Origin: an uncultured Verrucomicrobiota bacterium
GTDB taxonomy: Bacteria > Verrucomicrobiota > Kiritimatiellia > RFP12 > UBA1067
Length of the DNA stretch: 64,000 nucleotides
Direction: 5' to 3'
Assembly: GCA_946533675.1 (NCBI GenBank)
Contig: CAMNBZ010000003.1
Location: 33,014 to 97,013 of the forward strand
Numbering within the stretch: position 1 is the stretch's first letter; each line of letters starts with the position of its first letter. The notes below the pieces were generated by a model, which searched no databases, was not told where the DNA came from, and saw only the letters and a program-made list of their open reading frames with translations. Below, in pieces: positions 2,396 to 37,073 of the stretch. Position numbers and translations under genes: made by a program.

Positions 2396-2402
2396 ACACA
2401 CC

Positions 2403-3908: not shown

Positions 3909-3916
3909 CGCGAATA

Positions 3917-3925: not shown

Positions 3926-3935
3926 GACACTCTCT

Positions 3936-6040: not shown

Positions 6041-6069
6041 TTGCGGGGGAGAAGAATATTTGGTAGAAT
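6041..6069 (+). promoter_or_regulatory. sigma70-like promoter: TTGCGG - 17 nt - (TGg)TAGAAT
   Basis: The -35-like TTGCGG is at 6041-6046 and the extended -10 TGGTAGAAT at 6061-6069. An AAAGGAG Shine-Dalgarno at 6113-6119 precedes the ATG at 6128. Confidence 0.5.
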
Positions 6070-6127
6070 GATGGCGAACATTGGAAAAGGCAGATTTCAA
6101 AACACAACAAACAAAGGAGAAAAAACC

Positions 6128-7738: not shown

Positions 7739-7766
7739 GTCAGTGCGCGAAAAGCGCAGAAACGAG

Positions 7767-7800
7767 GAGCGCGGCAGAAATGCCGCGCTCTGCGTTTTTT
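7767..7800 (+). terminator. rho-independent terminator
   Basis: A 10-bp GC stem, GAGCGCGGCA (GAAA) TGCCGCGCTC, is followed by TGCG and TTTTTT at 7795-7800. It lies 29 nt after the stop codon. Confidence 0.8.
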
Positions 7801-8100: not shown

Positions 8101-8133
8101 TCGCCGCGCGCGTAAGATTTCGAAAATTCCGGC

Positions 8134-8863: not shown

Positions 8864-9170
8864 GCTAGAACGCCCGCTTCGCGGGCTAATCTAGAACGCT
8901 CGCACGGGGTGCGAGCTAATCTAGAACGGAACGGGGCGGTGGCCCCGTTCCTAATCTAGAACGCCCGCTGCGCGGGCTAACCTAGAGCGCGCGGCACGGC
9001 CGCGCTTGTCTAGAAAGTCTAGATTAGCTCGCGCAACGCGCGAGCGTTCTAGATTAGCCCGCACTTCGTGCGGGCGTTCTAGATTAGGGGCGGCACACTT
9101 GCCGCCCCGTTCTAGCTTCTTTAGCTTGCCGCCACGTTCTAGCTAGTCTAGCCAGCTGCCCCGTTCTAGC
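8864..9170. repeat. CTAG-rich hairpin mosaic array B (BIME-like)
   Basis: About 14 CTAG tetramers. The architecture matches array A, with two extra hairpin units at the 5' end. Confidence 0.85.
8920..9116. repeat. 197-bp direct repeat, copy 2 (partner 7818-8014)
   Basis: See copy 1. Confidence 0.85.
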
Positions 9171-9282
9171 ATCTCTTCTGCGCAAATCTAAATTTCCCGT
9201 TGCCTTTTCAGACCAGTTGTGATAAAGTGTTCAAAGACTGTTAACAGGGTAGCTGATAGCTTGTCAATAAGCCATCGGCAAC

Positions 9283-9311
9283 TTGCTATCCGTCATGCAA
9301 AAAAGTATAGT
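9283..9311 (+). promoter_or_regulatory. sigma70-like promoter of the giant-protein operon: TTGCTA - 17 nt - TATAGT
   Basis: It lies in the only long AT-rich intergenic stretch (about 9175-9360). An AAGGTGG SD at 9351-9357 precedes the ATG at 9361. Confidence 0.55.
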
Positions 9312-9360
9312 AAATATTGGTGTTTCAATGACATCAAACGAATGAAAGACAAGGTGGCGC

Positions 9361-20944
<11,584 letters not shown>

Positions 20945-20961
<17 letters not shown>

Positions 20962-21310
20962 CAGATTTGCGGTGCTTGCCGCCGCCACCGTCCTCCTGAC
21001 GGGATGTCCGAAAGCGGAGAAGGAGCCCGAGCCGGAAACGACCCGGATGCAGGATCCCGTGTATGTCCAGAAGCTGGAGGTCGAGCGGGGCGAGCAGAAG
21101 CGCATCCAGGGCGATCTGGAGGCGGTGCGCCAGGCGCTGGAGGCGCTGAAGGCCGAGGACCCCGAGCTGACGGGGGACAAGGCGAAGGAGCTGGCGGCGC
21201 GCCGCGACGCGCTCCTGGAGGAATTCGGCGCAAGCCGCAAACGCGCGGCCGCGACGGTGCGCGAGCGCGTGCTGAAGGATTTAAACAATGAGAAGCAGAA
21301 GGGAGAATAA
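20945..21310 (+). CDS. small coiled-coil lipoprotein (121 aa)
   Basis: MKMPIDRFAVLAAATVLLTGC carries the lipobox L-T-G-C. The remainder is charged and heptad-like (LEAVRQALEALKAEDPEL...). The ATG overlaps the last 17 nt of giant gene 1, and the stop lies 4 nt before the giant gene 2 ATG. Confidence 0.6.
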
Positions 21311-21314
21311 GCCC

Positions 21315-24300: not shown

Positions 24301-27300
24301 AGACGTACCGGGAGCTCTACACCAACCTCGTGCCCTTCACGATGTATCCGCAGGGCGTCGACCCCGTCATCGTGACGCCGTCGGAGGCGAGCGAGGTCAT
24401 GACGAACAAGACGTCGATCGGCGTCGACAACATCGTCAACTGGGCGGTGCGCGACATCGCGGGCGACTTCGCGCCGCCCGCGACGGTCGCGATCACGGTC
24501 GAGGGCGTGACGACGGTCATCTCCAACAACATCGACATCGCCGGCGGCAGCATCCGCGCGGTGAGCGGCTCCCACAAGTTCCAGTTTGACTCGACGGGCC
24601 CGAAGACGGTCATCCTGACGGTGACGGACAAGGACGGCAGGCCGGCCACGCGCACGATCCTCTACATGATCGATCCGTCGAAGAACGTCATCGTCTACCC
24701 GCACGGCGCGAACCGCTCGAACGTCTCGTCGATCTCCTCGCCCTACGTCAACGCGCAGGGCCTCGGCACCGGCTACGTGTGGCAGGACGGCACGCTCGTC
24801 GGCGACAACACGAAGAAGTTCACGAACCGCCGCGCGCTGTCGTTCGGCGTGACGGCGACCTCGGCGACGTTCGCCGGCATGGGCGACATGACCGGCTGGC
24901 TCGGCAACGGCGCCGCGAGCACGCTCGCGTACGACAGCTACCTCTACGGCTGGATCGTGACGGCGGGCGGCGAGGCGACGTTCACCGGCTACAGCCCGCA
25001 CTACGGCACGTACGCGGACTACGCGGCGGCGTTCGCCGACGCGGACAACTACGCGGCGACGGTGACGCTGCCGAGCGCCGACGAGTTCGACGAGACGGCC
25101 AACGCCTACGCCGACCGCTTCCTGGAGGCGATCTTCTCGCGCGAATGGCGCGCGGCGGACAACATGGGCGACATCAACGCCGACGGCGTGCCGGACTTCT
25201 TCGCCGTGGCGAAGAGCTACGCGAACGGCACGGTCCAGGAGGCGGACGGCACCGGCGCCGAGGCGCGCACGCAGATCGACACGCTGAACGACGACCTCGA
25301 CTTCCTGCCCGGGCGCATCGCCGTGCCGCTCGCACCCTCCACGTGGAGCGGCGACGACGGCAGTCCGTTCACCGCGCGGCTGGAGGTCCGCGGTTCCCAC
25401 AACGGCCTGAACTACGGCATGTTCCGCGCCGACAAGAAGGAGGCCGCCGACGGCTGGATCTCCGATCTCGACCTGAGCCTGGCCGAAAAGCTCTACCTCG
25501 TCAGCCACGCGCAGGCGAACGCGGGCGCGGCGCTGGCCGACGCGCTCCTGGCGACGCTGCCGGCGAACTACGTCGCCGGCGATCTGGCGGACGGCTGGCT
25601 GACGCCGACCAACGCGACGGAGCAGGCGGCGGCGAAAGCCTACATCGACTGGACCTGGAGCGGCTACGAAGAGGGCGATGCGCCCGCGAAGTGGGGCTTC
25701 ACGGTCGAGAACCGCACCGATCCGACGAGCGACGACACCGACGGCGACGGCCTGCCCGACGGCTATGAATACGCGCTGTGGTACGCGGCGACCGTCGGCA
25801 GCGTCGACGCGACCGGCAATCGCACGACGATCACCGGCACGCGGTTCGACCTTTCCGACATCGAAAGCACCGACGACGTCATCACGTCCGCCGACATCGC
25901 CGCGATCTACAACCCGAACGCATACCGGAAGTCGGCCGAGCAGGACACGGACAACGACGGCCTCTTCGATCTCGAGGAAATGCTGATCGGCACGAGCCCG
26001 ATCCACTGGGACACCGACAGCGACGGCCTGAGCGACCTCTACGAGGTGCTGTACAACCTCAATCCGCTGAAGGCGGCGACGGACAACAATACGCCCGACG
26101 GCGAGACCAACCACGACGGCGACTTCATGGCGCGCGCCTCCACGACGGCCGCCTACATGATCGTCGAGTCGGCGACGGGCGAGCTCTGGGCCTTCTCGAC
26201 CTACACGTACAGCGATGACGGAACGGCGGCGATCCTCACCGGCACCGGCTTCCCGGTCGCGCGGTTCAACGGCGGCTACATCCCGCGGACGCTCTACGTC
26301 ACCGAAGAGCTGATGACGCAGGCGGCGACGCTCACGTTCGAGACCGGCACGACGCTCGATTCGCACAGCGTCATATTCTCGACGCTCGACCTCTACCACG
26401 CCCAGGTCTACTGGTACAAGGGCTTCGATCCGCGCACCGGCTGGTACGTGAACGGCAGCAACGGGTCGCTGTCCACGACGAAGCGCTGGCTGAAGAACAA
26501 CGCGCCGATTCCGGGCGGTACGCCCGTCGACACGGCGGCCTACACCGCGCACGACGAGTACCTGCTCCTCAAGTTCCGCCAGATCACCGGCATGACGGTC
26601 CGCGCGGACCAGAAGCACACGATCCAGGGGTACATCACGCTCAACTGCACCAACCCGAGCGCCGAGACGGAGGCGGGCGCGACGATCGGCGACGGCACCA
26701 AGGAGTACGGTGCGTGCGGCAACGGCGCGGACACCGATTCCGACGGCGTGCCGGACGGCTGGGAACTGTACATCGGCGTCGATCCGCAGATCGACTTCCG
26801 CATCCCGAAGTCGAGCAGCGGCCACGACCCGCTCTACTGGGACGGGTACACGGACGGCTACGGGAACCTCATCGCGGCGATCGGCGACAATTCGGCCTAC
26901 GATGACGGCCTGACGCTCGTGGGCGAATACGCCGGCACCGATTCGACGCTCGCGTTCGCCGGCTGCGAAAGCATCTACGCGAACCATCCGTCGCAGGCGG
27001 GCAGCGTCCACGTCAACTGGTTCAACAAGTTCTTCCCGACCGATCCGCGCCAGATCGACACGGACGGCGACGGCATCAACGACGGCGCCGAGGGCACCTC
27101 CTGGAGCGAACTCTTCACGATGAACCGCTGGGGCCAGCGCGCGGCGACCAGCACGCTGGAGTACAAGGAGATCACCCACAACTTCATCTACGGTTCGCCG
27201 TCCGACAACGGCTCGCTCTGCATCCGCGGCGGCGGCCTGAACCCGACCTGCCTCGATACGGACGGCGACGGCCTGCCCGACCCGTGGGAACGCCAGTACG

Positions 27301-30300
27301 CCGGCGCGCTCTTCACGGGCACCAGCATCGTCGACAGCCAGTTCAAGCAGGGCGCGCCGGACACGTCGGTCTTCAACGACATCGCCGCCGCGCTCCTGGC
27401 CTTCGGCAGCTCGACCAACGTCGCGGAAGGCGGCTACCACATCCTCATGGGCATGGACGGCACCGCCAATGACGCCGCGACCGAGGTCCGGCTGGGCTCG
27501 CCCGATCTCGACTGGGACGGCGACGGCCTCCAGAACTGGCAGGAGTACATGGTGCAGGCGATGCGCCACTTCCGCTACGACGACTTCCACACGCCGCTGA
27601 TGGGCTTCGATGCGCCGAAGTTCGATCTGGGCAGCGGCACCTATCTGCCGGGCGGCTGGTTCGGCCGTGACGAGAACGGCGAGGGCCAGTTCCTCGAAAT
27701 GAGCTACTCGACGCGCTTCACGCCGGCGGAGCTGGCGACGCTGCAGGAGATCGGCTACACGAACTTCGTCGATTTCGTGACCCGCTACGAGGCGGCGGAC
27801 GAGACGCGCGACTACCTGCGCGACCTCGGCTACCTGGCCCTGCCGCCCCGCGAATGGGACCATGCGCGCGTGGACCTCGGCAAGCGGTACATGCTGCCGC
27901 CGAAGCTGATCCAGGAGAAGCCGCAGGTCACGACGGCCCGCCTGCCCACCGTCTGGCAGTTCACCGACGGCACGGCGGTCGACCTGACGGATCCCACGAC
28001 CTACGCCTCGGGCACGGTCGCGACCGGCGAGATCGGCGCGTTCTCGTTCCTCGGCATGTCCTGGTTCTGGGACGAGGCGACCGGCAAGTCGGTCGAGCCG
28101 TACATCCTGACGACCACCAATCTCGTCTTCACGACGACGGGCGCCGCCGGCTATGTCGGCACCGATCCGCGCCTGTGGGATACCGACGAGGACGGCATGG
28201 ACGACTACTGGGAGCTCTTCCACGGCCTCAACCCGATCCTGGGCGATCCGGGCCAGCCGAGCGAATCGGACGTCACCATCGTGTCGAACAACGTGACGAC
28301 CGTCGAGACGCTCACCACGTACGTCGGCGCGAAGGACGTCATCTACGACCGCTACTACTCCATCAGCGCGTGGAAGAACGGCTGGGTCGGCTTTGACCGC
28401 GAATGGGATGCGGCGGACAAGACGCCGCCGCTCGACGCGATCCGCTATCCGTGGATGATGGGCGTGAGCATGTGCGACGCCGACGGCGACGGCCTCAGAA
28501 ACGAGGAGGAGGCGCTGATGGCCAACCTCGCCTCGCCCGACGCCTACCATACCGACCCGTCGCCGCTGTGGATGACGGATTCGACCGTCGGTTCCTTCCA
28601 GGTGCCGGTGATGGAGGTCGAGACGGTGACGACGAACCTCACGACCGCCGCCGGGCTGCCGGTTCTGGACGGCACCGGCAATCCGATCGCGATCGACATG
28701 GTCGTGACGAACGTCAGCTCCTACCTGACGTTCCGCCGCAGCCCGTCGTATACGGCGCTCTACTACAACGATGACGCGATGACCGCGTCGCCGTTCGGCA
28801 CGGCGCAGTTCGCGTCGTACGAGATGCACGAAGGCTACGATACCGACGGCGACTTCCGCAGCGACAAGACCGAGATGGAGAAGGTGGTCGAGACGACGAG
28901 CGATCCGCTGGACTTCGACGACATCAGCCGCCGCCAGTCCATCCACTTCGGCGGCAAGGACGATCCGGGCGTCGCGCTGACGTTCGAGCCGATCCGTCGC
29001 AACGCCAACGGGCAGTCGCTCTTCCGCCAGTTCACGGTGGAGGCGTGGGTGCGGCCGGAAGCTCCGGCGGCCGGCGAACGCCAGTATGTCGTCACGCGCG
29101 GCATCAACTATCCCGCGTGGGATCTCCTCAACTCCAACACCGTCGTGCGCCTCAACTTCGCGCTCGGCATCGACGAGAGCGGCCGTTCGCTCGCGCGCTT
29201 CGACAGCTCGACGGACGAGGGCTTCGTGGAGATCACCGGCTCGGCGCTCCCGGCGGACACGTGGGTGCACCTCGCGCTGACGTTCGACGGCGAGACGCTC
29301 CGGCTCTATGAAAACGCCGTGGAGATGAGCTCGCTGCCGACGACGATGATCCCGGCCAACGGCGTCCATGGCCAGATGCAGGATCCGCAGTACGCGCGCG
29401 GCTTCCCGTACAACACCTACAGCGCCTACCCGGCGGCGACCGCCCTCGGCGGCAGCCCGCGCGCGGCGGCGTTCGAGGCGGGCGCGGCGGCCGGCGCGGC
29501 GTGGGAGACGCTCGCGGGCGATCTCTTCAAGGGCAGCGTCGACGAAGTGCGCATCTGGGACGGCGCGCGCACGCTCGACCAGATCGCGGCCGACTACAGG
29601 AAGCGCTACTCGGTCAGCGACGTGAAGGCGCTGCGCGACAGGATCGTCGCCCAGCGTCGGGAGGGCGCGACGCGCAACGACAACGACGCCGAGGGCACGC
29701 TCGATCCCGAGCTGATCCAGCACTACAACTTCACGGCGCTGCCCGGCGCGACCGAGGCGCAGTACGTCCAGAAGGTCCCGGCGGGCTTCGCGGCGAACGT
29801 GCTCGCGCTCGTGCGCGATCCGGACGACGCGGAGATGAGCGACCTCGTCAAGGTCGGCTGGTGGAACGACATCCTGACGAACGCGACGATCGCGGTCAAC
29901 CAGGTCTACACCTCGCCGCACGTCGTGCCGTGGATCCAGAACACGGTCGCCCACCTGCCGCGCGTGAGCGGCACGGTGCTGGACAGCGTGTACTGGAGCG
30001 AGAACTACGCGGGCTACACGCCGGCCTCGTTCCACAGCCTCGGCTCGTTCACGTTCCCGAACGCGATGAATCCCTACAGCTTCACGTCGCTCAAGCTGGA
30101 GGAGGACTATGCGCTCAACAAGTTCCTCAAGCTCGGCGACGGCCTGTACAGCATCTACTACTCCGACATCCGCTACGAGTTCACCGGCACGAGCGACCTC
30201 GTTCCGCTCGGCTCGGCGTTCGCGCAGCGCCTCGCGGAAAGCTGGGACGGCGAGGGCGCGGAGGACGTCTGGGCGATCACGACGGACGGCACGGCCCTTG

Positions 30301-33300
30301 ACGGCGATCCGGACGGCGCGGGCATCCCGCAGTGGGCGCGCGACGCCGGCTACACGACGGCGGAGGCGTACGTCTACGCGCTGGCCCACGGCCTGATCCC
30401 GGGCGGCATCGATCCGGCCTACGCGCAGACCGCGGACATGGACGGCGACGGCCTGCCCGACTGGTGGGAGGTGCTGAAGGGCGTCAGCGAGATGGGCGCG
30501 AACGACGACCCGGATCACGACGGCCTGTCGAACTACCAGGAATACCTCATCTCCGAGGGCGCGGCATTCGGCCGGGGCACCGGCGCCGACGGCTGGCCCG
30601 TCGGTCTCAACCCGCTCGCGGCGATCACCGACAAGTCGGAGGGCTTCGTGCGCGACTACTTCCGCAAGGGCGGCGCGGACAAGACGAACTGGTATCTCGG
30701 CGAAATCATCGGAGACCATGACTTCATGGAAGACTGGTGGGAGGCGGGCTATCCCCGGAGCTACGCGAATCCGGGCGTCTACGATCCGCACGACGACACG
30801 GACGGCGACGGCTGGACCAACTGGGAGGAGCTGCGCTACAGCCGCTTCACCTCGACGATCGCGGCCGACCGCATCTCGCATATCGTCGGCGACTCCGAAA
30901 TCAAGGACATGCCGGTTCCGACGCTGCGCCTGTCGCTCGCCTACAACGGCAGCCAGCAGGTGGGCGAGGCGCCGATCGTCATCCAGACCTACTCGAAGCG
31001 CGGAGCCGAAAGCGCCGACGCGACGTTCACGGTCCAGCGCGGCGAATCGGAGGAGCTCACGCGCTACATCGGCAAGTGGAGCGACCGCGTCGTCCACGGC
31101 ACGCTGACGCCGGGCCACATCAACGCCAAGTCGCTCGACATCGAGTTCGCGGCCGTCGACAGCGATTCGGAATACGTGGTGCAGTTCGTCGGCCTGGAAG
31201 ACGTCATCCCCGGCAGCACCGGACGCTTCTACCCGCTGACCTACGACGAGTACATGCAGCTGTACAACACCTACGGCTCGAACCGCGTGGTGCTGCAGAC
31301 GACGTCCGCCTTCGTCTGGAGCCAGTTCAACCAGGCCAACGGCGTCACGGTCGGCGACGAGGGCTACATCCGCCTGCTGGGCGAGCGCGTCGGCACGATC
31401 GATCTGGAGACCGGCGCGTACGATCTCGACCTCGGGCCGTTCGCCGAACACGGGCTGACCGGCACCAACGGCACCTACGCGCTGTCGAGCACCGTGCTGC
31501 GCTTCAAGTACACCTCGACCGGACCGAAACTCGCCGACAACCGTCTGGATCTCTACCTCGGCGAGGCCGGCTCGGGATACGTGCGCGGCGGAACGAACAC
31601 GATCACCGCGTTCTACGATCTGGACGGCAATGGCGTCTACACCCCCGGCGAGCCCTTCGGCGTGGCCGAGGGCGTGGACGTGGGCTGGTTCCACTCGGCC
31701 GAGACCGTCATCGAGCTGACCGACACCACGGCGATCCTGCCGCGCGTGGACGTGACGACGCTCGCGAGCGACCGCAGCGCCGTGCTGGGCGACGCCGGCG
31801 GCGTTTCGGCCGAGGCCGTGCTCGCGGTCGGCGACGCCGCCGAGGGCGCCGCGGCGCAGACATCCGGCATCGCCGGCACCTACCACATCGTGCGCACGGC
31901 CGTCAACGGCACGGAGCTCCCGTCGCGCACCACGGTTCTCTCCAAGACGCTGACGTACGCCGGCCGCAGCTACCTGTGCGAGGGCGACGTGACCCGCACC
32001 GGCAGCCTCGGCCTCGACTGGGGCGCGCTGGACGCGGCGGCCGCGCGTGTCGGCATCGCGCCCGCCGACATCTCGCGCGTGACCTACGCCCTCGAGCGCG
32101 TCACCGTGTCCGAGGAGACGGGCCTGCCGGAGACCGAGGAGCTGATGACGTTCGTCAACACGTTCAACACCATCCGCGGCACCGCCCGGGCGGTCGCGCC
32201 GATCCAGGGCGCCGCCGTCGTCCAGGCCGCGCCGACGTTCGTCTGGACGAGCGAGGACGAGACGATGACCGCCTTCCGTCTGCAGGTGTGCGACGACGAG
32301 GGATCGATCGTCTATGATTCCGGCGCGAAGCTCCTGCCGGCGCGGCTGAACGGCACCTACACGTTCACGCCCGACCTGTATGTCGACTTCGCGGCCACCA
32401 ATGGCGCGCCGGTCTTCGCGGACGGCGGCAGCTACCGCTGGCGCGTGGGGCTCCTGAACGCCAAGTTCGCGACGATTGACGAAGCGGCCGACGCGGACTG
32501 GAGCGACTGGAGCGACTTCGCGACGGGTGTCGCGAGCACGGACGGCCAGCTGACCGGCTACGGCTCGGCGGCGGCGGCGGTGCGCTACTACGGTCCCGCC
32601 GCGGGCGACGAGGCCGCGAACATCCTCGTCGAGGCGTACGACACGCCGGACTTCTCCGGCGCCCCGCGCGCCCGGGCGCGTCTGGCAGACCTCGCGCTCC
32701 TCGGCGACCGCGCCGATCTGACGACGACCAACGCGGTGCTGCGCGGCCTCGAGCCCGGCAAGATCTATCTCGTCGCGTTCATCGACCGCAACAACAACGG
32801 CGTGCGCGACCGCTACGAATCCTGGGGCTATGCCAACCAGGTCGACGTGCACACCCCGGACATCTACACGCCGGCGAGCGTGGAGGTGAAGGCCGAGGCG
32901 GTCAAGACGTCCGCGGCGGTGATCTACATCGAGGATACCGATCTCAACAAGAACGGCGTGCCCGATCCGCTGGAAAGCCTGGACGACCTCCAGACGGCCG
33001 ATGCCGCGATCACTGACGTCAGCCGGGATGTCGACAGCGACGGCGACGGTCTCACGGACGATGACGAGACGGGCGTCCACGGAACCGATCCGAACCAGGC
33101 GGATACGGACGGCGACGGCATGCCCGACGGCTGGGAGGTTGAAAACGGCACCAATCCGCTGGCGGATGACGGCGCGACGGCGCTCGACGGCGACGTGATG
33201 GCGTACGCGGAGCTGAAGGGCCAGACGGTGTTCACGGCGACCGACGGAACCGAGACGAAGTCCGTCTGGGTGAAGGCGAGCGACACCGCGCGGGCGGTCC

Positions 33301-36300
33301 AGGTCGGCGACACGCTGACGCCCGAGACGGCGGGGAACTACACGTTCGTCTCGCTCTTCCCGTACGGAAGCAATCAGTCGTGGGTCTACTGCGCAGGCGC
33401 CGAGACCGCGCCGGCCGACGGCACGACATGGCAGGTGACCGCGGTCACGAACGTGCCGGTCGCGCTCGTCCACGCGCAGGTCTACGATCACTACGGGTAC
33501 AACCCGCGCACGGCCAACCCGACCGTCTCCAGCAACGAGTGGACCTCGGTCCATTCCAAGGCGTTCACGGCGCTCGACAAGTACCTCGTGACGAAGTGGC
33601 TGGCGGCGCTCGGCCTGACGGACGCGGCGGACTTCACGCTCGACGCGGCGACGGCGGATACGAACGGCAACGGCATCCCGGACGGCTGGGAGCTCTACGT
33701 GATGTTCGGCCCGGCGGGCGCGACCGCGACGGTCGACGAGGCGAAGATCTCGCCGTGGAAGAGCGCGGACTACGTGCGCGACTACGCCAACACGCCCGAC
33801 GGCGGACGCCTGACGATCCTCGACGAGTACGACCAGGGCAGCTGGCCGACCGATCCGTGGAGCATCGACACCGACGGCGACGGCGTGTTCGACGTCTACG
33901 CCTACCTCTATCACCTCAAGGGCGACCAGGCCGGTGCGGACGCCGACGGCGACGGCCTGAGCAACTACGCGGAATATCTCGTCAGCGAGGTCTTCCAGAT
34001 CGTCAAGGTCGATCCGAACCAGGCGATGACCGACGGCTCGACGCTCGACTACTACCGGAAGTTCGGCGAGCTGTACCTCGGCGAGGTCTTCACCGACCAC
34101 GACCGCGTCCGCGACCTCTGGGAGGCGCTGTACGAGCGCGGCACCATCGACGGCATCGACTACGCGGCGCGCGGCATCTACGATCCGGACGCGGACCGCG
34201 ACGGCGACGGCTGGAGCAACTACGCCGAGTTCCGGGCCGGCACGAGCCCGGCGCGGCAGACGAGCGCGGGCATCGACGACTTCATGCTGATCGAGCATCC
34301 CGTCCCGGTGGTGGAGATGGAGGTCGTCTACAACGGCACGGCCGACATCGAGGGCCGCACGCTCACCGTGAAGGCGTGGAACGAGGCGGACGATCCCGAC
34401 GCGCTCAAGGCGCCGACGGCGACCTGGACGGTCTCGACGTTGAACGAAAGCGGCTCCGCCACGCAGCAGAACACGACGACCAGCGAGGAGGTGCGCGAGA
34501 AGTACATCGGCCAGATGCCGACCGGCACGCGGACGTACTACCTCGGTTCCGGCGCGATCAAGGAGGGCTCGTTCAAGCTCTGCATCAAGGACAAGAACTA
34601 CGTGGAGGGCCAGATCGTCGAACTGCTGGGCCAGCGGTACTTCCAGCCGACCGGCTACGGCGACGCCGACGCCGCGCTGTGGTACTACGACGTGATCGAC
34701 CAGGGCGGCAAGCTCGTGCAGTCCGGCGGCATCTTCGCCGAGTCGCACCAGGTCGGCACGATCGACTACGATACGGGCCGCGTCACGATCGACTTCGACG
34801 ACGAGGAGTTCACGGACGAGCTGTACGTGGGCGATCCGTCCCAGGCGGCCGGCGCCTCGGGCAACAACGGCAACAACGGGAACACGACGACCTACCACGG
34901 CCTCAATCCGCCGACCTGCTACGTCAAGCTCGTCTGGTCGCCGGCGACGACCATCCCGGTGAAGGGCCGCCACTACCTGAGCGACGCGACGACGGGCTTC
35001 CTGCGCGAGGGCGCGACGACGTTCACGGTCGAGGCCGCGGCCTCCGACAGCGACGTCGACCAGAATTCGACCTCGACGGCGAAGGCCGGTCTCTACGGCG
35101 TCGTCCGCGGCGTGGACGTCGGCTGGGCGGGCGCCAAGTTCAAGGTGGAGCTGACGGACTTCAGCCCGGTGACGCCGCGCGTCGACCTGTGGGCGGACAC
35201 GCCCGACCGGACGGATCTCGTCCCGATCGAGGATCCGCGCGTCAACTCGTCGTCGAACGTGCTGGAGCTCGTGACCGCCGAGGGCGCGAACGCCCGCGTG
35301 CGCGTCGTCCGCTTCGCGATCAACGGCTATCCGATCGCCGCGACCTGGCCGGGTCAGGACCTCGACGAGGTCGTCTACGAGAACTTCTACAGCGTGGACG
35401 GCCGCACGCAGCTCACGGAACTCGACTTCCTGAACGACGGGGCGTTTGACATCGACTGGACGGACGACTTCAACCGTACGGTCGCGGGTTCGAGCGGCGC
35501 AACGGTCAATTCGACGCTCGTCGGGACGCTCGGCAGCGGTTCGTCCATCACCAACATCCAGTACCTCGTGGTGGTCGGCGACGGCGACGCGAACTGGGGC
35601 CGCGGCGACGGCACGAACACCGTTTACGCGCTCTCGACGCTGATCACGCGCCGCTTCGACCGGACGCGGGCGACGCCGGTGGCCGTGGCGGTGGACGGCC
35701 TCCAGTACGCGGCGCGTCCCACGTTCACGTGGCGCATGGAGGGCGAGGATGAGCGCGTGGCCCGGTTCGGATCGAGCTACACGGCCTTCAAGCTGCAGGT
35801 GCGCAAGGGCGACACGGTGATCTACGACTCCGGCATCCGCCGCGCGCCGGTCACCGATGCGAACGGCAACTTCGTCTGGACGGCGCCGATCTGCGCGGGC
35901 AGCCTGCTGCAGGACAACGCCTTCTACGGCACGACCGACAGCTACAACTGGCGCGTGACGATGTACAACGCGAAGTTCCGCACCGACTCCTGGTCGGCCC
36001 AGAACGGCGCGTCGGTCTTCACGACGGCGGTCAACGCGCAGCAGGAGGTCAACGACCACGGCTACTCCTCCATCCGCGTGGCGGTCAAGTACGCCGGTCC
36101 GTCGATCGTCCTGGAGAAGCAGGCGGACCTCGCGACGGCGCAGGGCAAGGTCGTCGTCCAGGCGTTCACGACGCCCGACTTCAGCGGCGAGCCGCTGGCG
36201 CAGGGTCTGGCGACGAACGAGGTCGACAGCCTCGTGCGCGCGACGGCCAACGCGACGCTGAAGGGCCTGGCCGCGACGGGCACCTACTACGTGCGCGCGT

Positions 36301-37073
36301 TCATCGACCTGGACGGCGACGGCCGGCTCTCCGCCTGGGAGCCGTGGGGGTACGCCGCGGACGCCGTGACGCTCGTCAACGACGGCACGATCGCCTCGGC
36401 GCCGCTCACCGCCGTCTGGATCGAGGACAGCGACACCGACGGCGACTGGGTGCCGGACGCCTATGAATACGCGGCCAGCGGCTGGAACGTCGACTGGGAC
36501 GAGAGCCTCAAGGGCAACCGCCGCACGCGGGCGACCGGGGCGACGACGGTTCTGGCGGACGGCGGCATCGTGATGCCGATCGCGACGAACGCGCTGACGA
36601 GCGCGGGCCTCTCGAAGGGTCTCCCGGGCGCGTCCTTCACGGCGATGCAGAGCGAGACCTTCGTGGCGGCGCTCCTCGGCCTGGACCTCAAGAACAAGAC
36701 GACGCTCGAGGCGATCGCCGAGGTGACGCGCGGCAAGCTCGTGCCGAACTCCGTCCGGGTGGTCGGTATCGCGCTGGAGCCCGACGGCTCGGCGGTGAAC
36801 CTCACCGTCAACGCCGATGTCGCCAGCGGCATCTCCGGCACGGTCGTCTCGCAGTACTACGAGTTCACCGGCAGCGACACCGTCCACGTGCTCGTGAAGG
36901 TCCTGAAGAAGGACTCGCTCGAGGACACGGACTGGACGCTCGTCTACACGACGCCGGAGCCGGTGGCCATCACGCCGCAGACGAACGAGACGGTCGTCGT
37001 GCCGTTCGACAAGCAGCTCGACCTCAAGAGCGGCTTCTTCAAGGTGAAGCTGGAGGAGGTCGTCGTCCCGTAA
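21315..37073 (+). CDS. giant secreted protein (~5,252 aa) with ~25 thrombospondin-type-3-like Ca-binding motifs, a LamG domain and a duplicated C-terminal super-module
   Basis: The signal peptide is MKMKLMKALVLTFALAAGTAARA, after an AGGGAGA SD. The ORF is uninterrupted for 15.8 kb. Many D-x-D-x-D-G-[LIMV]-x-[DN]-x-[WYE]-E motifs occur. The C-terminal tail is SGFFKVKLEEVVVP. Confidence 0.9.
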   Translation: MKMKLMKALVLTFALAAGTAARAAGDLIEILPCDATGQTLAVPVSSVADPIDCTPHYFKLRLVNRIGYSASQPWVMVPKVTGATDPLKMYVYISGELREAAYTGTTVPNGLTTDFVFSFTPRAGDLALPVVLATTAGRADVSGLTEGSIVYRLANDHLWGIYPNGDTTQDEAVLILNDSNEVHASRPEGGDWSNDYSLAGAGFYVKEVDFDANAYSDTVWRSINSNDTTCVNTALPMLKVNSPENTSSAFVYVWTKDPDVVVVDGNSASIGTEYAIDGTDEDGQPLKTKGLKIQVAANSDSKSFYLKALGAVGATTTLFMADTPTNIYYNSGSVIPNFVTRTVRVDVPNPPAAKLYFNGETSTTTLALGADADYQTTKATVMVELSEAYTADVTVTLGAKYTDATDVDLAANDYISLSTTDGTASWSQPAAQVTIPAGSTMATLYLHVLGGSSQTKDGIILSVASIDGAGDHYAAGAQATLSISPTTPKIANPANGAVFEGALTGESFLLEDFRIDDTYANRLKGTTEGYTVFYKRTYAAGGGDAKFQQATFTNALDGTAKDTASVLGLRLAKAGTATVTMYLQAPDGTKTATADYVTFTVEVTQSPQVTAQVTSGLNDDETASEGATLQVKFFLSDANSADGNLYAFLVPADEATSNNVDVCTALADSGRTGVEILNGESASRLYATLKFKDGSTIGDLMTFNIFLSEDKTLGAPDYATYPDYGYKTYDGYADGSLMIYVVNEIPKVALVQINGVDGTSIDGDIVEDVQTSQGIECKFATVVTEPSATDLTAADGKEFLVQYTFYDGTSLPQVRTVPGNPNALTDGVYSTVTNFTFQSAGTNKVTVALKDKDMDAYGDKFTFYVIVNATPGVEITSGRMDASAVYPEDETGAINAPLSVRLTATPNDALEIGLKVDHAVASDTFALPTLNLPVENREITPGVFADVYVVTFNAGYRNPAQNIYFTAIDGTGNSEINGVTITPYVLTDTESPYAGKTYRELYTNLVPFTMYPQGVDPVIVTPSEASEVMTNKTSIGVDNIVNWAVRDIAGDFAPPATVAITVEGVTTVISNNIDIAGGSIRAVSGSHKFQFDSTGPKTVILTVTDKDGRPATRTILYMIDPSKNVIVYPHGANRSNVSSISSPYVNAQGLGTGYVWQDGTLVGDNTKKFTNRRALSFGVTATSATFAGMGDMTGWLGNGAASTLAYDSYLYGWIVTAGGEATFTGYSPHYGTYADYAAAFADADNYAATVTLPSADEFDETANAYADRFLEAIFSREWRAADNMGDINADGVPDFFAVAKSYANGTVQEADGTGAEARTQIDTLNDDLDFLPGRIAVPLAPSTWSGDDGSPFTARLEVRGSHNGLNYGMFRADKKEAADGWISDLDLSLAEKLYLVSHAQANAGAALADALLATLPANYVAGDLADGWLTPTNATEQAAAKAYIDWTWSGYEEGDAPAKWGFTVENRTDPTSDDTDGDGLPDGYEYALWYAATVGSVDATGNRTTITGTRFDLSDIESTDDVITSADIAAIYNPNAYRKSAEQDTDNDGLFDLEEMLIGTSPIHWDTDSDGLSDLYEVLYNLNPLKAATDNNTPDGETNHDGDFMARASTTAAYMIVESATGELWAFSTYTYSDDGTAAILTGTGFPVARFNGGYIPRTLYVTEELMTQAATLTFETGTTLDSHSVIFSTLDLYHAQVYWYKGFDPRTGWYVNGSNGSLSTTKRWLKNNAPIPGGTPVDTAAYTAHDEYLLLKFRQITGMTVRADQKHTIQGYITLNCTNPSAETEAGATIGDGTKEYGACGNGADTDSDGVPDGWELYIGVDPQIDFRIPKSSSGHDPLYWDGYTDGYGNLIAAIGDNSAYDDGLTLVGEYAGTDSTLAFAGCESIYANHPSQAGSVHVNWFNKFFPTDPRQIDTDGDGINDGAEGTSWSELFTMNRWGQRAATSTLEYKEITHNFIYGSPSDNGSLCIRGGGLNPTCLDTDGDGLPDPWERQYAGALFTGTSIVDSQFKQGAPDTSVFNDIAAALLAFGSSTNVAEGGYHILMGMDGTANDAATEVRLGSPDLDWDGDGLQNWQEYMVQAMRHFRYDDFHTPLMGFDAPKFDLGSGTYLPGGWFGRDENGEGQFLEMSYSTRFTPAELATLQEIGYTNFVDFVTRYEAADETRDYLRDLGYLALPPREWDHARVDLGKRYMLPPKLIQEKPQVTTARLPTVWQFTDGTAVDLTDPTTYASGTVATGEIGAFSFLGMSWFWDEATGKSVEPYILTTTNLVFTTTGAAGYVGTDPRLWDTDEDGMDDYWELFHGLNPILGDPGQPSESDVTIVSNNVTTVETLTTYVGAKDVIYDRYYSISAWKNGWVGFDREWDAADKTPPLDAIRYPWMMGVSMCDADGDGLRNEEEALMANLASPDAYHTDPSPLWMTDSTVGSFQVPVMEVETVTTNLTTAAGLPVLDGTGNPIAIDMVVTNVSSYLTFRRSPSYTALYYNDDAMTASPFGTAQFASYEMHEGYDTDGDFRSDKTEMEKVVETTSDPLDFDDISRRQSIHFGGKDDPGVALTFEPIRRNANGQSLFRQFTVEAWVRPEAPAAGERQYVVTRGINYPAWDLLNSNTVVRLNFALGIDESGRSLARFDSSTDEGFVEITGSALPADTWVHLALTFDGETLRLYENAVEMSSLPTTMIPANGVHGQMQDPQYARGFPYNTYSAYPAATALGGSPRAAAFEAGAAAGAAWETLAGDLFKGSVDEVRIWDGARTLDQIAADYRKRYSVSDVKALRDRIVAQRREGATRNDNDAEGTLDPELIQHYNFTALPGATEAQYVQKVPAGFAANVLALVRDPDDAEMSDLVKVGWWNDILTNATIAVNQVYTSPHVVPWIQNTVAHLPRVSGTVLDSVYWSENYAGYTPASFHSLGSFTFPNAMNPYSFTSLKLEEDYALNKFLKLGDGLYSIYYSDIRYEFTGTSDLVPLGSAFAQRLAESWDGEGAEDVWAITTDGTALDGDPDGAGIPQWARDAGYTTAEAYVYALAHGLIPGGIDPAYAQTADMDGDGLPDWWEVLKGVSEMGANDDPDHDGLSNYQEYLISEGAAFGRGTGADGWPVGLNPLAAITDKSEGFVRDYFRKGGADKTNWYLGEIIGDHDFMEDWWEAGYPRSYANPGVYDPHDDTDGDGWTNWEELRYSRFTSTIAADRISHIVGDSEIKDMPVPTLRLSLAYNGSQQVGEAPIVIQTYSKRGAESADATFTVQRGESEELTRYIGKWSDRVVHGTLTPGHINAKSLDIEFAAVDSDSEYVVQFVGLEDVIPGSTGRFYPLTYDEYMQLYNTYGSNRVVLQTTSAFVWSQFNQANGVTVGDEGYIRLLGERVGTIDLETGAYDLDLGPFAEHGLTGTNGTYALSSTVLRFKYTSTGPKLADNRLDLYLGEAGSGYVRGGTNTITAFYDLDGNGVYTPGEPFGVAEGVDVGWFHSAETVIELTDTTAILPRVDVTTLASDRSAVLGDAGGVSAEAVLAVGDAAEGAAAQTSGIAGTYHIVRTAVNGTELPSRTTVLSKTLTYAGRSYLCEGDVTRTGSLGLDWGALDAAAARVGIAPADISRVTYALERVTVSEETGLPETEELMTFVNTFNTIRGTARAVAPIQGAAVVQAAPTFVWTSEDETMTAFRLQVCDDEGSIVYDSGAKLLPARLNGTYTFTPDLYVDFAATNGAPVFADGGSYRWRVGLLNAKFATIDEAADADWSDWSDFATGVASTDGQLTGYGSAAAAVRYYGPAAGDEAANILVEAYDTPDFSGAPRARARLADLALLGDRADLTTTNAVLRGLEPGKIYLVAFIDRNNNGVRDRYESWGYANQVDVHTPDIYTPASVEVKAEAVKTSAAVIYIEDTDLNKNGVPDPLESLDDLQTADAAITDVSRDVDSDGDGLTDDDETGVHGTDPNQADTDGDGMPDGWEVENGTNPLADDGATALDGDVMAYAELKGQTVFTATDGTETKSVWVKASDTARAVQVGDTLTPETAGNYTFVSLFPYGSNQSWVYCAGAETAPADGTTWQVTAVTNVPVALVHAQVYDHYGYNPRTANPTVSSNEWTSVHSKAFTALDKYLVTKWLAALGLTDAADFTLDAATADTNGNGIPDGWELYVMFGPAGATATVDEAKISPWKSADYVRDYANTPDGGRLTILDEYDQGSWPTDPWSIDTDGDGVFDVYAYLYHLKGDQAGADADGDGLSNYAEYLVSEVFQIVKVDPNQAMTDGSTLDYYRKFGELYLGEVFTDHDRVRDLWEALYERGTIDGIDYAARGIYDPDADRDGDGWSNYAEFRAGTSPARQTSAGIDDFMLIEHPVPVVEMEVVYNGTADIEGRTLTVKAWNEADDPDALKAPTATWTVSTLNESGSATQQNTTTSEEVREKYIGQMPTGTRTYYLGSGAIKEGSFKLCIKDKNYVEGQIVELLGQRYFQPTGYGDADAALWYYDVIDQGGKLVQSGGIFAESHQVGTIDYDTGRVTIDFDDEEFTDELYVGDPSQAAGASGNNGNNGNTTTYHGLNPPTCYVKLVWSPATTIPVKGRHYLSDATTGFLREGATTFTVEAAASDSDVDQNSTSTAKAGLYGVVRGVDVGWAGAKFKVELTDFSPVTPRVDLWADTPDRTDLVPIEDPRVNSSSNVLELVTAEGANARVRVVRFAINGYPIAATWPGQDLDEVVYENFYSVDGRTQLTELDFLNDGAFDIDWTDDFNRTVAGSSGATVNSTLVGTLGSGSSITNIQYLVVVGDGDANWGRGDGTNTVYALSTLITRRFDRTRATPVAVAVDGLQYAARPTFTWRMEGEDERVARFGSSYTAFKLQVRKGDTVIYDSGIRRAPVTDANGNFVWTAPICAGSLLQDNAFYGTTDSYNWRVTMYNAKFRTDSWSAQNGASVFTTAVNAQQEVNDHGYSSIRVAVKYAGPSIVLEKQADLATAQGKVVVQAFTTPDFSGEPLAQGLATNEVDSLVRATANATLKGLAATGTYYVRAFIDLDGDGRLSAWEPWGYAADAVTLVNDGTIASAPLTAVWIEDSDTDGDWVPDAYEYAASGWNVDWDESLKGNRRTRATGATTVLADGGIVMPIATNALTSAGLSKGLPGASFTAMQSETFVAALLGLDLKNKTTLEAIAEVTRGKLVPNSVRVVGIALEPDGSAVNLTVNADVASGISGTVVSQYYEFTGSDTVHVLVKVLKKDSLEDTDWTLVYTTPEPVAITPQTNETVVVPFDKQLDLKSGFFKVKLEEVVVP
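28930..29610 (+). other. LamG (Laminin_G_3-like) domain in giant protein 2
   Basis: FRQFTVEAWVRP...WVHLALTFDGETLRLYENAV...FKGSVDEVRIWDGARTLDQIAADYRKRY. Confidence 0.65.
30430..36480 (+). repeat. tandem duplication of a ~3.4-3.5 kb coding super-module inside giant gene 2 (copy A ~30430-33860, copy B ~33860-36480)
   Basis: Landmarks are colinear and about 3.39-3.53 kb apart. Pairs are DPDHDGLSNYQEY (30507) / DADGDGLSNYAEY (33939), DTDGDGWTNWEEL / DRDGDGWSNYAEF and MPVPTLRLSLAYNGS / HPVPVVEMEVVYNGT. Further pairs are PTFVWT...FRLQV / PTFTWR...FKLQV, YRWRVGLLNAKF / YNWRVTMYNAKF, TPDFSGAP / TPDFSGEP and FIDRNNNGVRDRYESWGYA / FIDLDGDGRLSAWEPWGYA. Confidence 0.7.

Follow-up and report, generated by a model that had tools for sequence, protein, structure and literature searches.

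A conserved three-gene locus for two predicted Sec-exported giant proteins and a small hairpin protein in uncultured gut Kiritimatiellae

Introduction

Giant ORFs have been described in Omnitrophota, a PVC-grouped lineage, where they carry domains putatively for attachment and for carbohydrate degradation (West-Roberts et al., bioRxiv 10.1101/2023.11.21.568195). With more than 30,000 aa and many TM regions, the proteins usually also have a SecA DEAD-like domain; a conserved T2SS-like locus lies upstream of their genes (bioRxiv 10.1101/2023.11.21.568195). The locus described here resembles them in its PVC-grouped lineage and in the secretin/T2SS-like genes nearby, but its two giants have 3,866 and 5,252 aa, no internal TM region and no SecA match, and their adjacency to a secretin is not conserved.

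The locus lies in a 64,000-nt stretch of DNA (the window) from the MAG of an uncultured gut member of the Kiritimatiellae. Kiritimatiellae are abundant in herbivore guts and in some human populations; to our knowledge those of the gut have not been cultured, and we know of nothing reported on their cell surface. An earlier note, made from this sequence alone, had described two giant secreted proteins bridged by a small lipoprotein. On the sequence comparisons below, we hold it rather more probable than the reverse that the trio is an operon specific to one lineage, the uncultured gut Kiritimatiellae, and vertically conserved in it; its two Sec-exported giants and periplasmic hairpin protein would form a surface adhesin or coat, with any outer-membrane passage via a general secretin pathway.

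Results

Three coupled and intact genes

The gene coordinates and protein sizes of the earlier note were reproduced, as was the share of the window taken up by the three genes (43%).

9283..9311, + strand: sigma70-like promoter-like site TTGCTA-17-TATAGT upstream of G1, with 9/12 consensus matches
9361..20961, + strand: G1, a 3,866-aa predicted Sec-exported giant; an ORF with GC3 of 0.91, its exact sequence present on 2 contigs
20945..21310, + strand: LP, a 121-aa predicted membrane-anchored helical-hairpin protein with lipobox LLTGC, overlapping G1 by 17 nt
21315..37073, + strand: G2, a 5,252-aa predicted Sec-exported giant; GC3 of 0.95, collinear orthologues at 24-54% identity

G2 is a single ORF that begins 4 nt after the LP stop (21310); a Shine-Dalgarno-like GGGAG lies 8-12 nt before its ATG at 21315. 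High-GC DNA yields spurious long ORFs, and two ORFs of 5,586 and 2,963 aa do lie antisense to the giants. Their GC1 of 0.92-0.94 marks these as shadow ORFs, whereas the + frames of the giants have a coding pattern (GC3 0.91-0.95) found on that strand only. The exact sequences of G1, LP and G2 recur on independent NCBI and ENA contigs (LP on 19), in-frame Pfam domains are present, and hundreds of orthologues keep invariant residues. That the long ORFs are a chance product of 67% GC DNA, a mis-assembly or pseudogenes is therefore already refuted by the integrity and orthologue evidence, and we give that reading practically no weight; both giant genes are intact, as first described.

The boundaries of the operon are less clear. 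The promoter-like site is present where the earlier note had placed it, but by itself it is not significant, since two sites of that quality were found in the region against 0.8 expected; these were scored by the sigma70 consensus, from which the uncharacterised Kiritimatiellae consensus may differ. At the other end, no terminator-like site was seen in the 66 nt between G2 and ackA, so the 3' end of the putative operon is uncertain.

Each giant has a single hydrophobic segment, at a signal-like N-terminus, and none was found elsewhere in either protein. Signal peptides are also seen at the N-termini of G1 and G2 orthologues, in agreement with the Sec-type signals first proposed, and both giants would thus be exported by Sec.

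G1 combines a variable N-terminal part with a conserved core

9634..10362, + strand: best stretch of Gly_rich_2 (PF21722), G1 aa 92-334, Pfam E 9e-56
12775..12897, + strand: partial, weak match to DUF2341 (PF10102), G1 aa 1139-1179, Pfam E 4e-5
17374..20958, + strand: X module, G1 aa 2672-3866 (1,195 aa), a predicted jelly-roll/Ig-like beta-sandwich chain with 35-46% full-length identity among relatives

The N-terminal part of G1 is variable, while the remaining ~2,700 aa, which start at about aa 1130, make up a strongly conserved core; in an alignment of 14 orthologues the invariant columns span aa 1145-3856. Gly_rich_2 matches three stretches within aa 1-1000, and aa 59-174 resemble aa 368-487 as an internal repeat. 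Among orthologues the N-terminal part holds either Gly_rich_2 (9/14) or DUF2341/LamG (DUF2341 in 7/14, best E 3e-16; LamG_3 in 5/14). Pfam thus bears out the glycine-rich and DUF2341/LamG modules reported earlier, giving Gly_rich_2 three times and a weak DUF2341 in G1, and Laminin_G_3 in G2. The lamin-tail-like domain was not reproduced: the Lamin-tail model (LTD, PF00932) has no match at E<=5 on G1 aa 3240-3440, a segment that holds 'WINEVN...VEIA...GW', and the resemblance is motif-level only, as judged from these residues.

The X module has no Pfam match and no PDB sequence match. Its AF2 model, of moderate confidence (pLDDT 74.9, pTM 0.53), contains only short-stranded sandwiches and no outer-membrane barrel. 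Foldseek matched it to the reelin repeat, the Eph ligand-binding domain, MAM and neuropilin b1b2; against PDB and viral libraries it shows generic jelly-roll/tail-protein similarity only.

Distribution and gene order of the trio

A relative of the last ~1,200 aa of G1 was found in each of 113 genomes that represent species; they come from rumen, yak, goat, sheep, chicken and human gut. The hits of a homologue search with this region are named Kiritimatiellae or Verrucomicrobia MAG. A search with a trimmed X-module alignment gave 458 clusters at 50% identity, in which the module is always C-terminal. Two loci (L014 and L016) hinted at a stand-alone X module. We rejected this as the general state because one of them (L014) has a scaffold gap upstream and because an ORF of 2,200-3,860 aa ends in the module at nearly all 80 genome loci.

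Of the 72 loci that could be assessed, 51 have the complete trio (G1 C-terminal region, small membrane-anchored hairpin protein and collinear G2 orthologue), the G2 orthologues having been collected from orthologous loci and not by direct G2 homologue search. Among 44 motif-confirmed trios, G1 and the small gene overlap by 1-23 nt in 30 (two further overlaps, of 70 and 76 nt, were set aside as start-codon miscalls), and -4 to +5 nt lie between the small gene and G2, likewise in 30. One LP homologue, 59% identical, has the same -17/+4 junctions as in the window. The tightly coupled three-gene unit inferred from a single genome is thus kept in orthologous loci of many species, and translational coupling may lead to roughly equal amounts of both giants. 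The parts are not strictly interdependent, since the small gene is missing from three loci and a G1-like gene stands alone beside leuS in 12.

Some 85-90% of either giant is without a match in Pfam, NCBIfam or PDB sequences and could conceal an enzymatic or other function; Pfam finds only Gly_rich_2, DUF2341, LamG and TSP3. No significant match came from PDB sequence and profile searches, which covered G1, G2, the X module, the G2 N-terminus and LP, and the literature searched for Gly_rich_2 and for Kiritimatiellae secretion holds nothing on the G1/G2 family.

G2 carries calcium-binding repeats and a strain-variable cassette

25170..34230, + strand: zone of 21 TSP3-type Ca-binding motifs (DxDxDGxxD), G2 aa 1286-4305
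29022..29345, + strand: Laminin_G_3 (PF13385), aa 2570-2677, E 3e-16 to 3e-19, in 15/15 orthologues
30372..33614, + strand: strain-variable cassette relative to the conspecific strain L097, about aa 3020-4100
30432..32984, + strand: first copy of an internal duplication, aa 3040-3890, pairing with aa 4185-5051
33867..36467, + strand: second copy, aa 4185-5051; ~850 aa at 33-43% identity, E down to 2e-26
36711..37070, + strand: conserved C-terminal region of ~115 aa, ending '...SGFFKVKLEEVVVP', conserved in the L098-L102 orthologues

The mature N-terminus of G2 has a conserved motif, GD(I/L)(Y/I)E(I/F)xPCD. The TSP3 repeats are interspersed with other modules over about aa 1290-4300. Some 25 such motifs had been counted in the giants; the motifs are indeed present in G2, but they number 21 by a loose pattern and 10 by a strict one, and the pattern search found none in G1. 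TSP3_bac is found by Pfam in 15/15 G2 orthologues, and many of the Asp and Gly residues at aa 1286-2520 are invariant in the 15-sequence alignment (which covers aa 1-3133). Laminin_G_3 occupies two stretches, one of them hit at E 3e-19. The giants would then be built almost wholly of beta-sandwich and Ca-binding modules.

The strain-variable cassette of ~1,000 aa is newly described here. It is 18-67% identical to the conspecific strain, against 94-99% for the flanking genes, the comparison running from the start of the L097 contig; the last ~1,100 aa of G2 are again 84-99% identical between the two strains. Divergence is also fast relative to the neighbouring genes: compared with the genus-level relative L098, G2 has 37-47% identity, ackA 79% and pta 86%. 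Judged from sequence, the cassette and the fast divergence are signs of surface exposure. A 23S_rRNA_IVP/Avd-like gene upstream raised the possibility of a diversity-generating retroelement, which we rejected: the window has no reverse transcriptase, and the cassette differs throughout, not at adenines.

A strain-variable segment in a giant exoprotein, with a small gene tightly linked to it, could also suggest a polymorphic toxin or contact-dependent inhibition-like system in which the segment is the effector and the small gene an immunity or helper gene. We regard this as very improbable. The variable segment is internal and the C-terminal end of G2 conserved, there are no toxin, TPS, Rhs or PT-domain hits and no TpsB, and the conserved small protein is exported and anchored in the membrane, its gene lying upstream of G2 and not behind a toxin tip. 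Under the adhesin or coat reading, the giants would instead assemble into an adhesive structure or coat, on the cell surface or outside the cell, which binds glycans and owes its rigidity to Ca2+.

The small protein is a membrane-anchored helical hairpin

LP has the signal peptide and lipobox ([LVI][ASTVI][GAS]C) of a bacterial lipoprotein, and lipidation is predicted; LL(T/A)GC is invariant in 8 homologues. Its AF2 model is a two-helix hairpin (helices 38-71 and 78-120, pLDDT >90), for which Foldseek against fold libraries returned generic helical hairpins only (best E 0.33). Across the 44 trio orthologues the small proteins have a lipobox-like Cys in 33 and a TM anchor in 7. Some orthologues carry, instead of the lipobox, a KKGR-plus-TM N-terminal anchor without Cys and of N-in orientation, which places the hairpin in the periplasm; an N-in TM-anchored form is found in about 10 species. 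The lipoprotein bridge of the earlier note therefore holds for the window and has to be widened for the family, in which the anchor may be a TM segment and the gene is sometimes absent. A profile scan of the genome contigs with the LP alignment gave no matches, because the LP pattern is too specific (the X-module alignment gave 113 in the same collection).

A role as secretin pilotin (PulS/OutS-type) does not fit LP: its gene is embedded between the giants, away from the secretin, the TM-anchored variants imply an inner-membrane location, and Foldseek gave no significant match. The hairpin protein, lipid- or TM-anchored, may instead be a periplasmic tether or assembly factor for the G1 C-terminus and the G2 N-terminus.

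A short C-terminal motif shared by unrelated secreted proteins

6041..7738, + strand: u565, a 565-aa signal-peptide protein, ending 'AGFFKVSVGTTEFAE'

A C-terminal "GFFKVxV" motif, newly described here, is common to G2, u565 and a Flg_new-repeat protein of the window. In the form (G/A)F(F/Y)KVx(V/I/L) it ends several unrelated secreted proteins of the window and related loci, and it is enriched at C-termini. We rejected a shared C-terminal domain of G2 and u565: profiles from the C-termini of one family miss the other, so that only the short terminal motif is common to both. In the window u565 is a separate unit, with a terminator-like hairpin behind it (7766-7791); in 8-9 of 35 loci a relative of it precedes G1.

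A bolder reading would make the trio a new kind of system for surface assembly, complete in itself and peculiar to gut Kiritimatiellae, in which a complex of the G1 core, the hairpin and the G2 N-terminus would build a giant Ca-stiffened fibre or coat. The (G/A)F(F/Y)KVx(V/I/L) tail of G2, of u565-like proteins and of the Flg_new-repeat protein would then be an unrecognised sorting signal for passage through, or attachment to, the outer membrane, analogous to the T9SS CTD but unrelated to it. We consider this decidedly doubtful.

Flanking loci and the route of export

71-3314: pseudopilin genes upstream of the trio
41221-48573: PilM/secretin cluster downstream of G2, beyond ackA-pta-kpsF

In the genes of the window, searches turned up neither ABC/MFP nor TpsB, and neither an autotransporter barrel nor a T9SS CTD (the sole ABC_tran hit is UvrA). 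Beside the orthologues examined there was likewise no T1SS (ABC transporter or MFP gene), TpsB, autotransporter or T9SS feature, and PEP-CTERM features were absent from both. Pfam and NCBIfam recognise no secretion signal for any outer-membrane pathway on the giants, and no dedicated exporter was found among the downstream genes of three distant orthologues (L099, L100 and L102). The statement that the locus has no recognisable exporter thus extends beyond the window. The further claim, that export is unexplained, stands as far as the lack of an adjoining cognate exporter is concerned; that absence refers to 64 kb of a MAG, and a secretin route is available in principle, since the one cultured Kiritimatiella, a diderm, is reported to possess Sec, Tat and a T2SS (PMC5148204). 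On our preferred reading, any outer-membrane passage of the giants would use the general secretin (T2SS-like) pathway encoded elsewhere or nearby, with no cognate exporter. We know of no T2SS substrate of 400-550 kDa.

In the window the trio does lie between pseudopilin and secretin loci, as first described, and one could see in this 48-kb region a single functional system in which the pseudopilin and PilM/secretin genes on either side have the giants as their specific substrates or components, by analogy with the Omnitrophota giant genes and the T2SS-like loci that precede them (bioRxiv 10.1101/2023.11.21.568195). The order G2-ackA-pta-kpsF is kept in L097, where it continues through PilM to the secretin, and in L098, whose contig ends after kpsF, before the secretin position. 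In L042 and L047 the u774 and pseudopilin pair immediately precedes u565-G1, and L088 has a fragment of it. The PilP-position protein has two TSP3 motifs, confirming the likeness to G2 noted earlier, although TSP3 is a widespread Ca-binding motif. Against these links, the housekeeping genes ackA, pta and kpsF intervene before the secretin. Their order is lost in L099, L100 and L102, where the identifiable genes behind G2 are other housekeeping genes (LpxB, PurB, GatA/B or a PHP-domain protein) and no PilM or secretin homologue was detected. A pseudopilin pair precedes G1 in only 3 of the 35 loci with upstream sequence, and the window has no GspE/F ATPase or platform gene. The cluster had been called PilMNOPQ-like; PilM_2 and Secretin are Pfam-supported, but N, O and P are assigned by gene position alone. 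Kept in close relatives only, the secretin adjacency is probably incidental, and a dedicated export system appears unlikely to us.

The same absence of known outer-membrane export features and of an adjoining exporter in the lineages examined would be expected if the giants stayed inside the outer membrane as a structural or Ca-buffering layer, tethered to the inner membrane by the hairpin, whose N-in TM anchor in about 10 species puts the small protein at that membrane. We see limited prospects for such a periplasmic scaffold. Such sharp differences in a cassette between conspecific strains are usual for exposed antigens and adhesins, modules of the LamG, jelly-roll lectin-like and TSP3 types are those one expects in extracellular proteins, and both the combined size (9,100 residues) and the fast divergence of the giants speak against it.

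Discussion

With its ~28 kb in a small genome and its retention by dozens of species, the operon is likely to be central to attachment, be it to other cells or to the glycans of plants or mucin. As it stands, the trio is a well-defined family of unassigned function rather than a proven new mechanism. Should the giants get to the surface with no known dedicated exporter, they would be a comparatively tractable case for the export of very large proteins in PVC bacteria, a question to which the locus brings a conserved partner protein as well as a C-terminal motif as candidate.

Among the known systems, T1SS RTX adhesins (LapA, SiiE) are alike in being multi-thousand-residue exoproteins of compact operons with accessory genes. 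However, these substrates are without cleavable Sec-type signals, which both giants carry, and the giants have no C-terminal T1SS signal, no ABC/MFP genes and no RTX (GGxGxD) repeats, the Pfam and NCBIfam tiles giving no HemolysinCabind or RTX match. Two-partner secretion (TpsA/TpsB, FhaB/FhaC) likewise involves large exoproteins and compact operons, but here there is no TpsB, and Pfam finds no TPS (Haemagg_act) domain in G1, G2 or 29 orthologues; in a profile search of the G2 N-terminus against PDB only FHA fragments appeared, at a non-significant E of ~0.7. A T5SS a/c/e barrel was found neither by Pfam on the giants (including the last 453 aa of G2, at E<=5) nor in the AF2 model of the last 1,195 aa of G1.

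T9SS CTDs carry a 'GxYxVxV' strand consensus, which the (G/A)F(F/Y)KVx(V/I/L) tail of the window proteins loosely resembles. No CTD model matches, however: Por_Secre_tail, TIGR04183 and TIGR04131 are all absent from the C-terminal 150-453 aa (Pfam E<=5, NCBIfam E<=10), the window has no T9SS genes, and we know of no T9SS in Kiritimatiellae. Exosortase or rhombosortase cargo (PEP-CTERM, GlyGly-CTERM) is not indicated either, as the giants lack a C-terminal TM segment and end in NYYENAD and KLEEVVVP. The Myxococcus proteins CglD and MtsD, the only NCBIfam hits of the trio, share its TSP3 Ca-binding repeats. The match is confined to the TSP3 region and reaches 22-40 bits against cutoffs of 400 and 800, and the trio has neither a VWA domain nor gliding-motility genes around it.

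The trio also resembles the giant Sec-dependent, multi-domain surface adhesins (fibrillar adhesin-like proteins) of Gram-negative and PVC bacteria, which have the same N-terminal signal peptide, Ig-like/jelly-roll sandwiches over thousands of residues, lectin-type LamG modules, Ca-binding repeats, strain-level variability and low Cys content. The trio differs from these in having no recognised module for anchoring or export (TPS domain, barrel, LPXTG, PEP-CTERM or T9SS CTD), and in its own arrangement: paired giants with a small membrane-anchored hairpin gene, and a ~2,700-aa G1 core to which no Pfam model corresponds.

Gene structure and integrity

The trio consists of two giant genes, G1 and G2, and between them a small gene for a lipobox protein, LP. 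Its layout is exactly as the earlier note gave it in lengths, overlap and gap:

9361-20961, + strand: G1, 3,866 aa, GC3 0.91
ATG at 20945, + strand: LP, 121 aa, 17-nt overlap with G1
21315-37073, + strand: G2, 5,252 aa, GC3 0.95
12487-21378, - strand: antisense ORF opposite G1, 2,963 aa
20943-37703, - strand: antisense ORF opposite G2, 5,586 aa

The G2 ATG lies 4 nt past the LP stop and is preceded by a GGGAG motif. The window has 67% GC and several frames hold long ORFs, with the coding-type pattern of codon-position GC confined to + strand frames. Both antisense ORFs are Arg-rich, with GC1 within 0.92-0.94; since the GC3 signal sits at their first codon position, they are shadow ORFs, artefacts of high sense-strand GC3 (a naive gene caller could call them wrongly). 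The exact LP sequence occurs on 19 contigs (NCBI, ENA, JGI, Logan), and the exact G1 and G2 sequences were found again in independent assemblies, the source being taken as GCA_002449695.1 contig DJXI01000058.1. The three ORFs are therefore intact, which answers the frameshifts or stops that the earlier note named as refuting it, and the reading of the trio as an artefact, for which the abundance of long ORFs might be cited, is effectively excluded. A promoter-like site is present at 9283-9311, but it matches the consensus at only 9/12. The interval between G2 and ackA (66 nt downstream) contains no terminator-like site, so the transcription unit may extend beyond G2.

Conservation of the trio

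The best-conserved part of G1 is its last ~1,200 aa (aa 2672-3866, the X module). Forty-five word-index matches are full-length at 35-46% identity; their sole name is "hypothetical protein", and their sources are MAGs of Kiritimatiellae or Verrucomicrobia. When one genome per GTDB species was scanned by pattern, 113 relatives emerged, and the 80 retrieved are nearly all from gut Kiritimatiellae MAGs (ruminants, chicken, Hadza or Nepali humans). Exhaustive searching of 1.84 billion representatives with a profile gave 458 clusters, the module always lying at the extreme C-terminus of proteins of 2,200-7,000 aa.

The trio is conserved as a coupled unit. Among 72 loci with sufficient downstream DNA, the G1 orthologue is followed in 51 by a small membrane-anchored protein and then a giant with a signal peptide and "GDIYEIRPCD" (counting two loci where an insertion separates G1 from the small gene); in two by the small gene, the contig ending ahead of the G2 position; in three directly by G2; in 12 by leuS, without G2; and in four by another arrangement. 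Of 44 motif-confirmed trios, 30 have a G1/small-gene overlap of 1-23 nt (two extra apparent overlaps, of 70 and 76 nt, result from miscalled start codons) and 30 have a small gene-G2 spacing of -4 to +5 nt. At locus L007, where G1, LP and G2 are 66%, 59% and 54% identical to those of the window, the -17 and +4 junctions are identical.

In the leuS subclade (L065-L067, L070-L072, L074, L080-L083, L086), leucyl-tRNA synthetase directly follows a G1-like gene whose X module is 31-33% identical, and neither small gene nor G2 is found; this arrangement reflects either the ancestral state or an orphan paralogue. Five loci with clear Kiritimatiellae G1/G2 orthologues (L031, L033, L064, L081, L088) come from bins labelled Azospirillum sp., Lachnospira hominis, Anaerovoracaceae, Clostridiales and Christensenella, likely through bin contamination or mislabelling.

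G2 orthologues are collinear across their first ~3,100 aa, with LamG and TSP3 as sole domains in 15/15 scanned. G1 orthologues have invariant residues from ~aa 1145 through the C-terminus, and their N-termini vary (Gly_rich_2 in 9/14, DUF2341 in 7/14, LamG in 5/14). At L013 (12664-22233; ENA ERZ930613 contig k127_1338856, 77-kb) the G2 orthologue is called at 8,522 aa, and G2 length thus varies at least 1.6-fold among species. A frameshift may explain why G1 at L013 occupies two ORFs (1,685 and 1,692 aa) with 22 nt between them, or the split may be genuine.

Domains and predicted structures

Each giant has one signal-like N-terminal segment, in agreement with the Sec-type N-termini proposed for both, and no hydrophobic segment beyond it. 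In 1,000-aa tiles, Pfam finds three Gly_rich_2 matches (all in aa 1-1000) and a weak DUF2341 match in G1, and Laminin_G_3 (two stretches) and TSP3_bac in G2; the rest has no match. The earlier note's glycine-rich, DUF2341, LamG and TSP3 modules are thus recovered, but not its lamin-tail domain, for which Pfam lists no match at E<=5. By pattern, G2 carries 21 TSP3-type motifs on loose matching or 10 on strict matching, and G1 carries none. NCBIfam yields just sub-threshold CglD and MtsD matches in the TSP3 region, and PDB sequences none. Similarity between G1 and G2 is not detectable; G2 contains an internal duplication (aa 3040-3890 and aa 4185-5051).

The AF2 model of the X module (32-sequence alignment; mean pLDDT 74.9, pTM 0.53) consists of beta-sandwiches strung together, a few helices among them; it has no outer-membrane barrel. 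Foldseek matches it to reelin repeats, Eph-receptor ligand-binding domains, MAM/meprin and neuropilin b1b2, all jelly-roll binding modules, and the significant matches include no enzymes or transporters; against a viral library, the matches are generic (tail proteins and CUB).

LP carries the lipobox LLTGC and is modelled by AF2 as a confident antiparallel two-helix hairpin (helices 38-71 and 78-120), for which we found no specific structural relative; just eight clusters of homologues are detectable. Across species the layout is an anchor, "RMxDPxY", helix, turn, helix and basic tail. The anchor is a lipobox-like Cys in 33/44 trios; the lipoprotein assignment holds for the window but does not extend to the 7/44 with a positively flanked, Cys-free TM helix, nor to the 3/72 loci that lack the gene.

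Between conspecific loci (the window and L097), G2 is 84-99% identical from ~aa 4115 to the C-terminus, and aa ~3020-4100 (30372-33614) are just 18-67% identical to L097 1-3300 over ~1,000 aa. This stretch, which overlaps the first copy of the duplication, is an allelic cassette in an otherwise near-identical locus. Sharp allelic replacement of this kind is a feature of exposed adhesins and antigens.

Genomic context and export

The trio is flanked by the following features:

Upstream: u774 (774 aa), without assigned identity; N_methyl/DUF1559 pseudopilin, a type known from PVC bacteria; LuxR-type response regulator; gmd; manC
Upstream: u565, secreted 565-aa protein, lower GC
7809-8053 and 8911-9155: 245-nt direct repeat, 94% identical, abundant TCTAGA-bearing hairpins
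7982-8104 and 9084-9197: 27-nt-period arrays of "CCGCCCCGTTCTAGC..." units, one after each repeat copy
8170-8553: 23S_rRNA_IVP-like/four-helix-bundle gene, between the repeats
Downstream of G2: ackA; pta; KpsF-like isomerase; gene without assigned identity
41221-42831: 536-aa fusion of PilM, a TM segment and a PilN-like C-terminal part
After PilM: two membrane proteins without assigned identity, the second in the PilP position
43835-44980: this PilP-position protein; N-terminal TM, CxxC...CxxC zinc-ribbon-like motif, two TSP3 repeats
45031-48573: secretin, unusually long at 1,180 aa
Beyond: CoaE, Rho, Flg_new-repeat protein, UvrA, RecA and others
50800-54282: Flg_new-repeat protein, downstream of rho; 1,160 aa, 10 Listeria-Bacteroides (Flg_new) repeats

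The repeat pair and IVP-like gene lie just upstream of the promoter-like site; Rfam gives nothing but spurious miRNA-hairpin matches on the repeats, and L013 also has a weak IVP-like gene ahead of G1. The secretin runs from a signal peptide through ~250 aa of acidic Ala/Glu/Pro repeats (AEEPAE...) and a helical region to the Secretin domain, best matched at aa 1078-1153. The Flg_new-repeat protein, with its hydrophobic N-terminus, is a further large repeat protein in the window.

As the earlier note observed, no T1SS, T5SS or T9SS component lies within the 64-kb window. It called export unexplained; an adjacent exporter is indeed absent, but the argument is one from absence of evidence, and failing to find an exporter in 64 kb of a MAG is not remarkable by itself. 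The pseudopilin and secretin flanks suggest a rival reading, export by a dedicated secretin or pseudopilus system. We compared flanks at three distances, using loci from a metagenome scan with the G2 C-terminus. The same-species L097 keeps the order from G2 through the secretin (flanking proteins 94-99% identical), and the genus-level relative L098 (ackA 79%, pta 86%) keeps G2-ackA-pta-kpsF, after which its contig ends. In the more distant L099, L100 and L102, those downstream genes that could be assigned encode LpxB, PurB, GatA/B or a PHP-domain protein; several others are without assignment, and homologues of PilM or the secretin were not detected. Ahead of G1, the u774-pseudopilin pair occurs in 3/35 loci (L042, L047, a fragment in L088), which may be a weak association, and a u565-like secreted protein in 8-9/35. 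The trio thus travels without a fixed exporter, and secretin adjacency is most simply a coincidence of local gene order. Giant genes beside T2SS-like loci are reported in Omnitrophota (bioRxiv 10.1101/2023.11.21.568195), and a diderm envelope is reported for Kiritimatiella glycovorans, along with Sec, Tat and a T2SS (PMC5148204).

Three C-termini in the window are alike: those of G2 ("...SGFFKVKLEEVVVP", within 36711-37070), u565 ("...AGFFKVSVGTTEFAE", 7690-7738) and the Flg_new-repeat protein ("...TMFYKVKVIAK", 54240-54282). These otherwise unrelated secreted proteins end in similar motifs of the form (G/A)F(F/Y)(K/R)(V/A/I)x(V/I/L), 0-13 residues from the stop. The motif is absent from G1 and recurs in other species, in G2 orthologues and u565-like proteins (L018, L020, L023, L030, L032, L037, L052, L075, L088, L096 and L098-L102). 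It falls in the last 25 residues of 6/286 stringently called ORFs against 0.63 expected (~10-fold), counts that are not independent. HMMs of one motif-bearing family do not detect the C-terminal regions of another, and curated sorting-domain models do not match them. The motif may act as a sorting tail of a type not yet recognised, or it may simply be a final strand that is common.

Discussion

In the best-supported reading, the trio is an operon specific to this lineage, encoding two giant binding proteins exported by Sec together with a hairpin partner that is periplasmic and membrane-anchored; the three would form an adhesive or coat structure on the cell surface or outside the cell. The giants would reach the surface through a general secretin pathway, where they may bind glycans and be stiffened by Ca; the hairpin protein may serve as a tether or in assembly. 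A rival reading makes the giants a periplasmic scaffold, which would suit the absence of an adjacent exporter; the strain-variable cassette points rather to exposure. A polymorphic toxin is effectively excluded.

Giant ORFs of adhesin-like type are already known from PVC genomes. The novelty here lies in a three-gene cassette, well defined and widely conserved in gut Kiritimatiellae, with a conserved core of ~2,700 aa that matches nothing in Pfam, NCBIfam or PDB sequences, an obligatory-looking small partner of variable anchor type, a strain-variable cassette and a candidate C-terminal motif.
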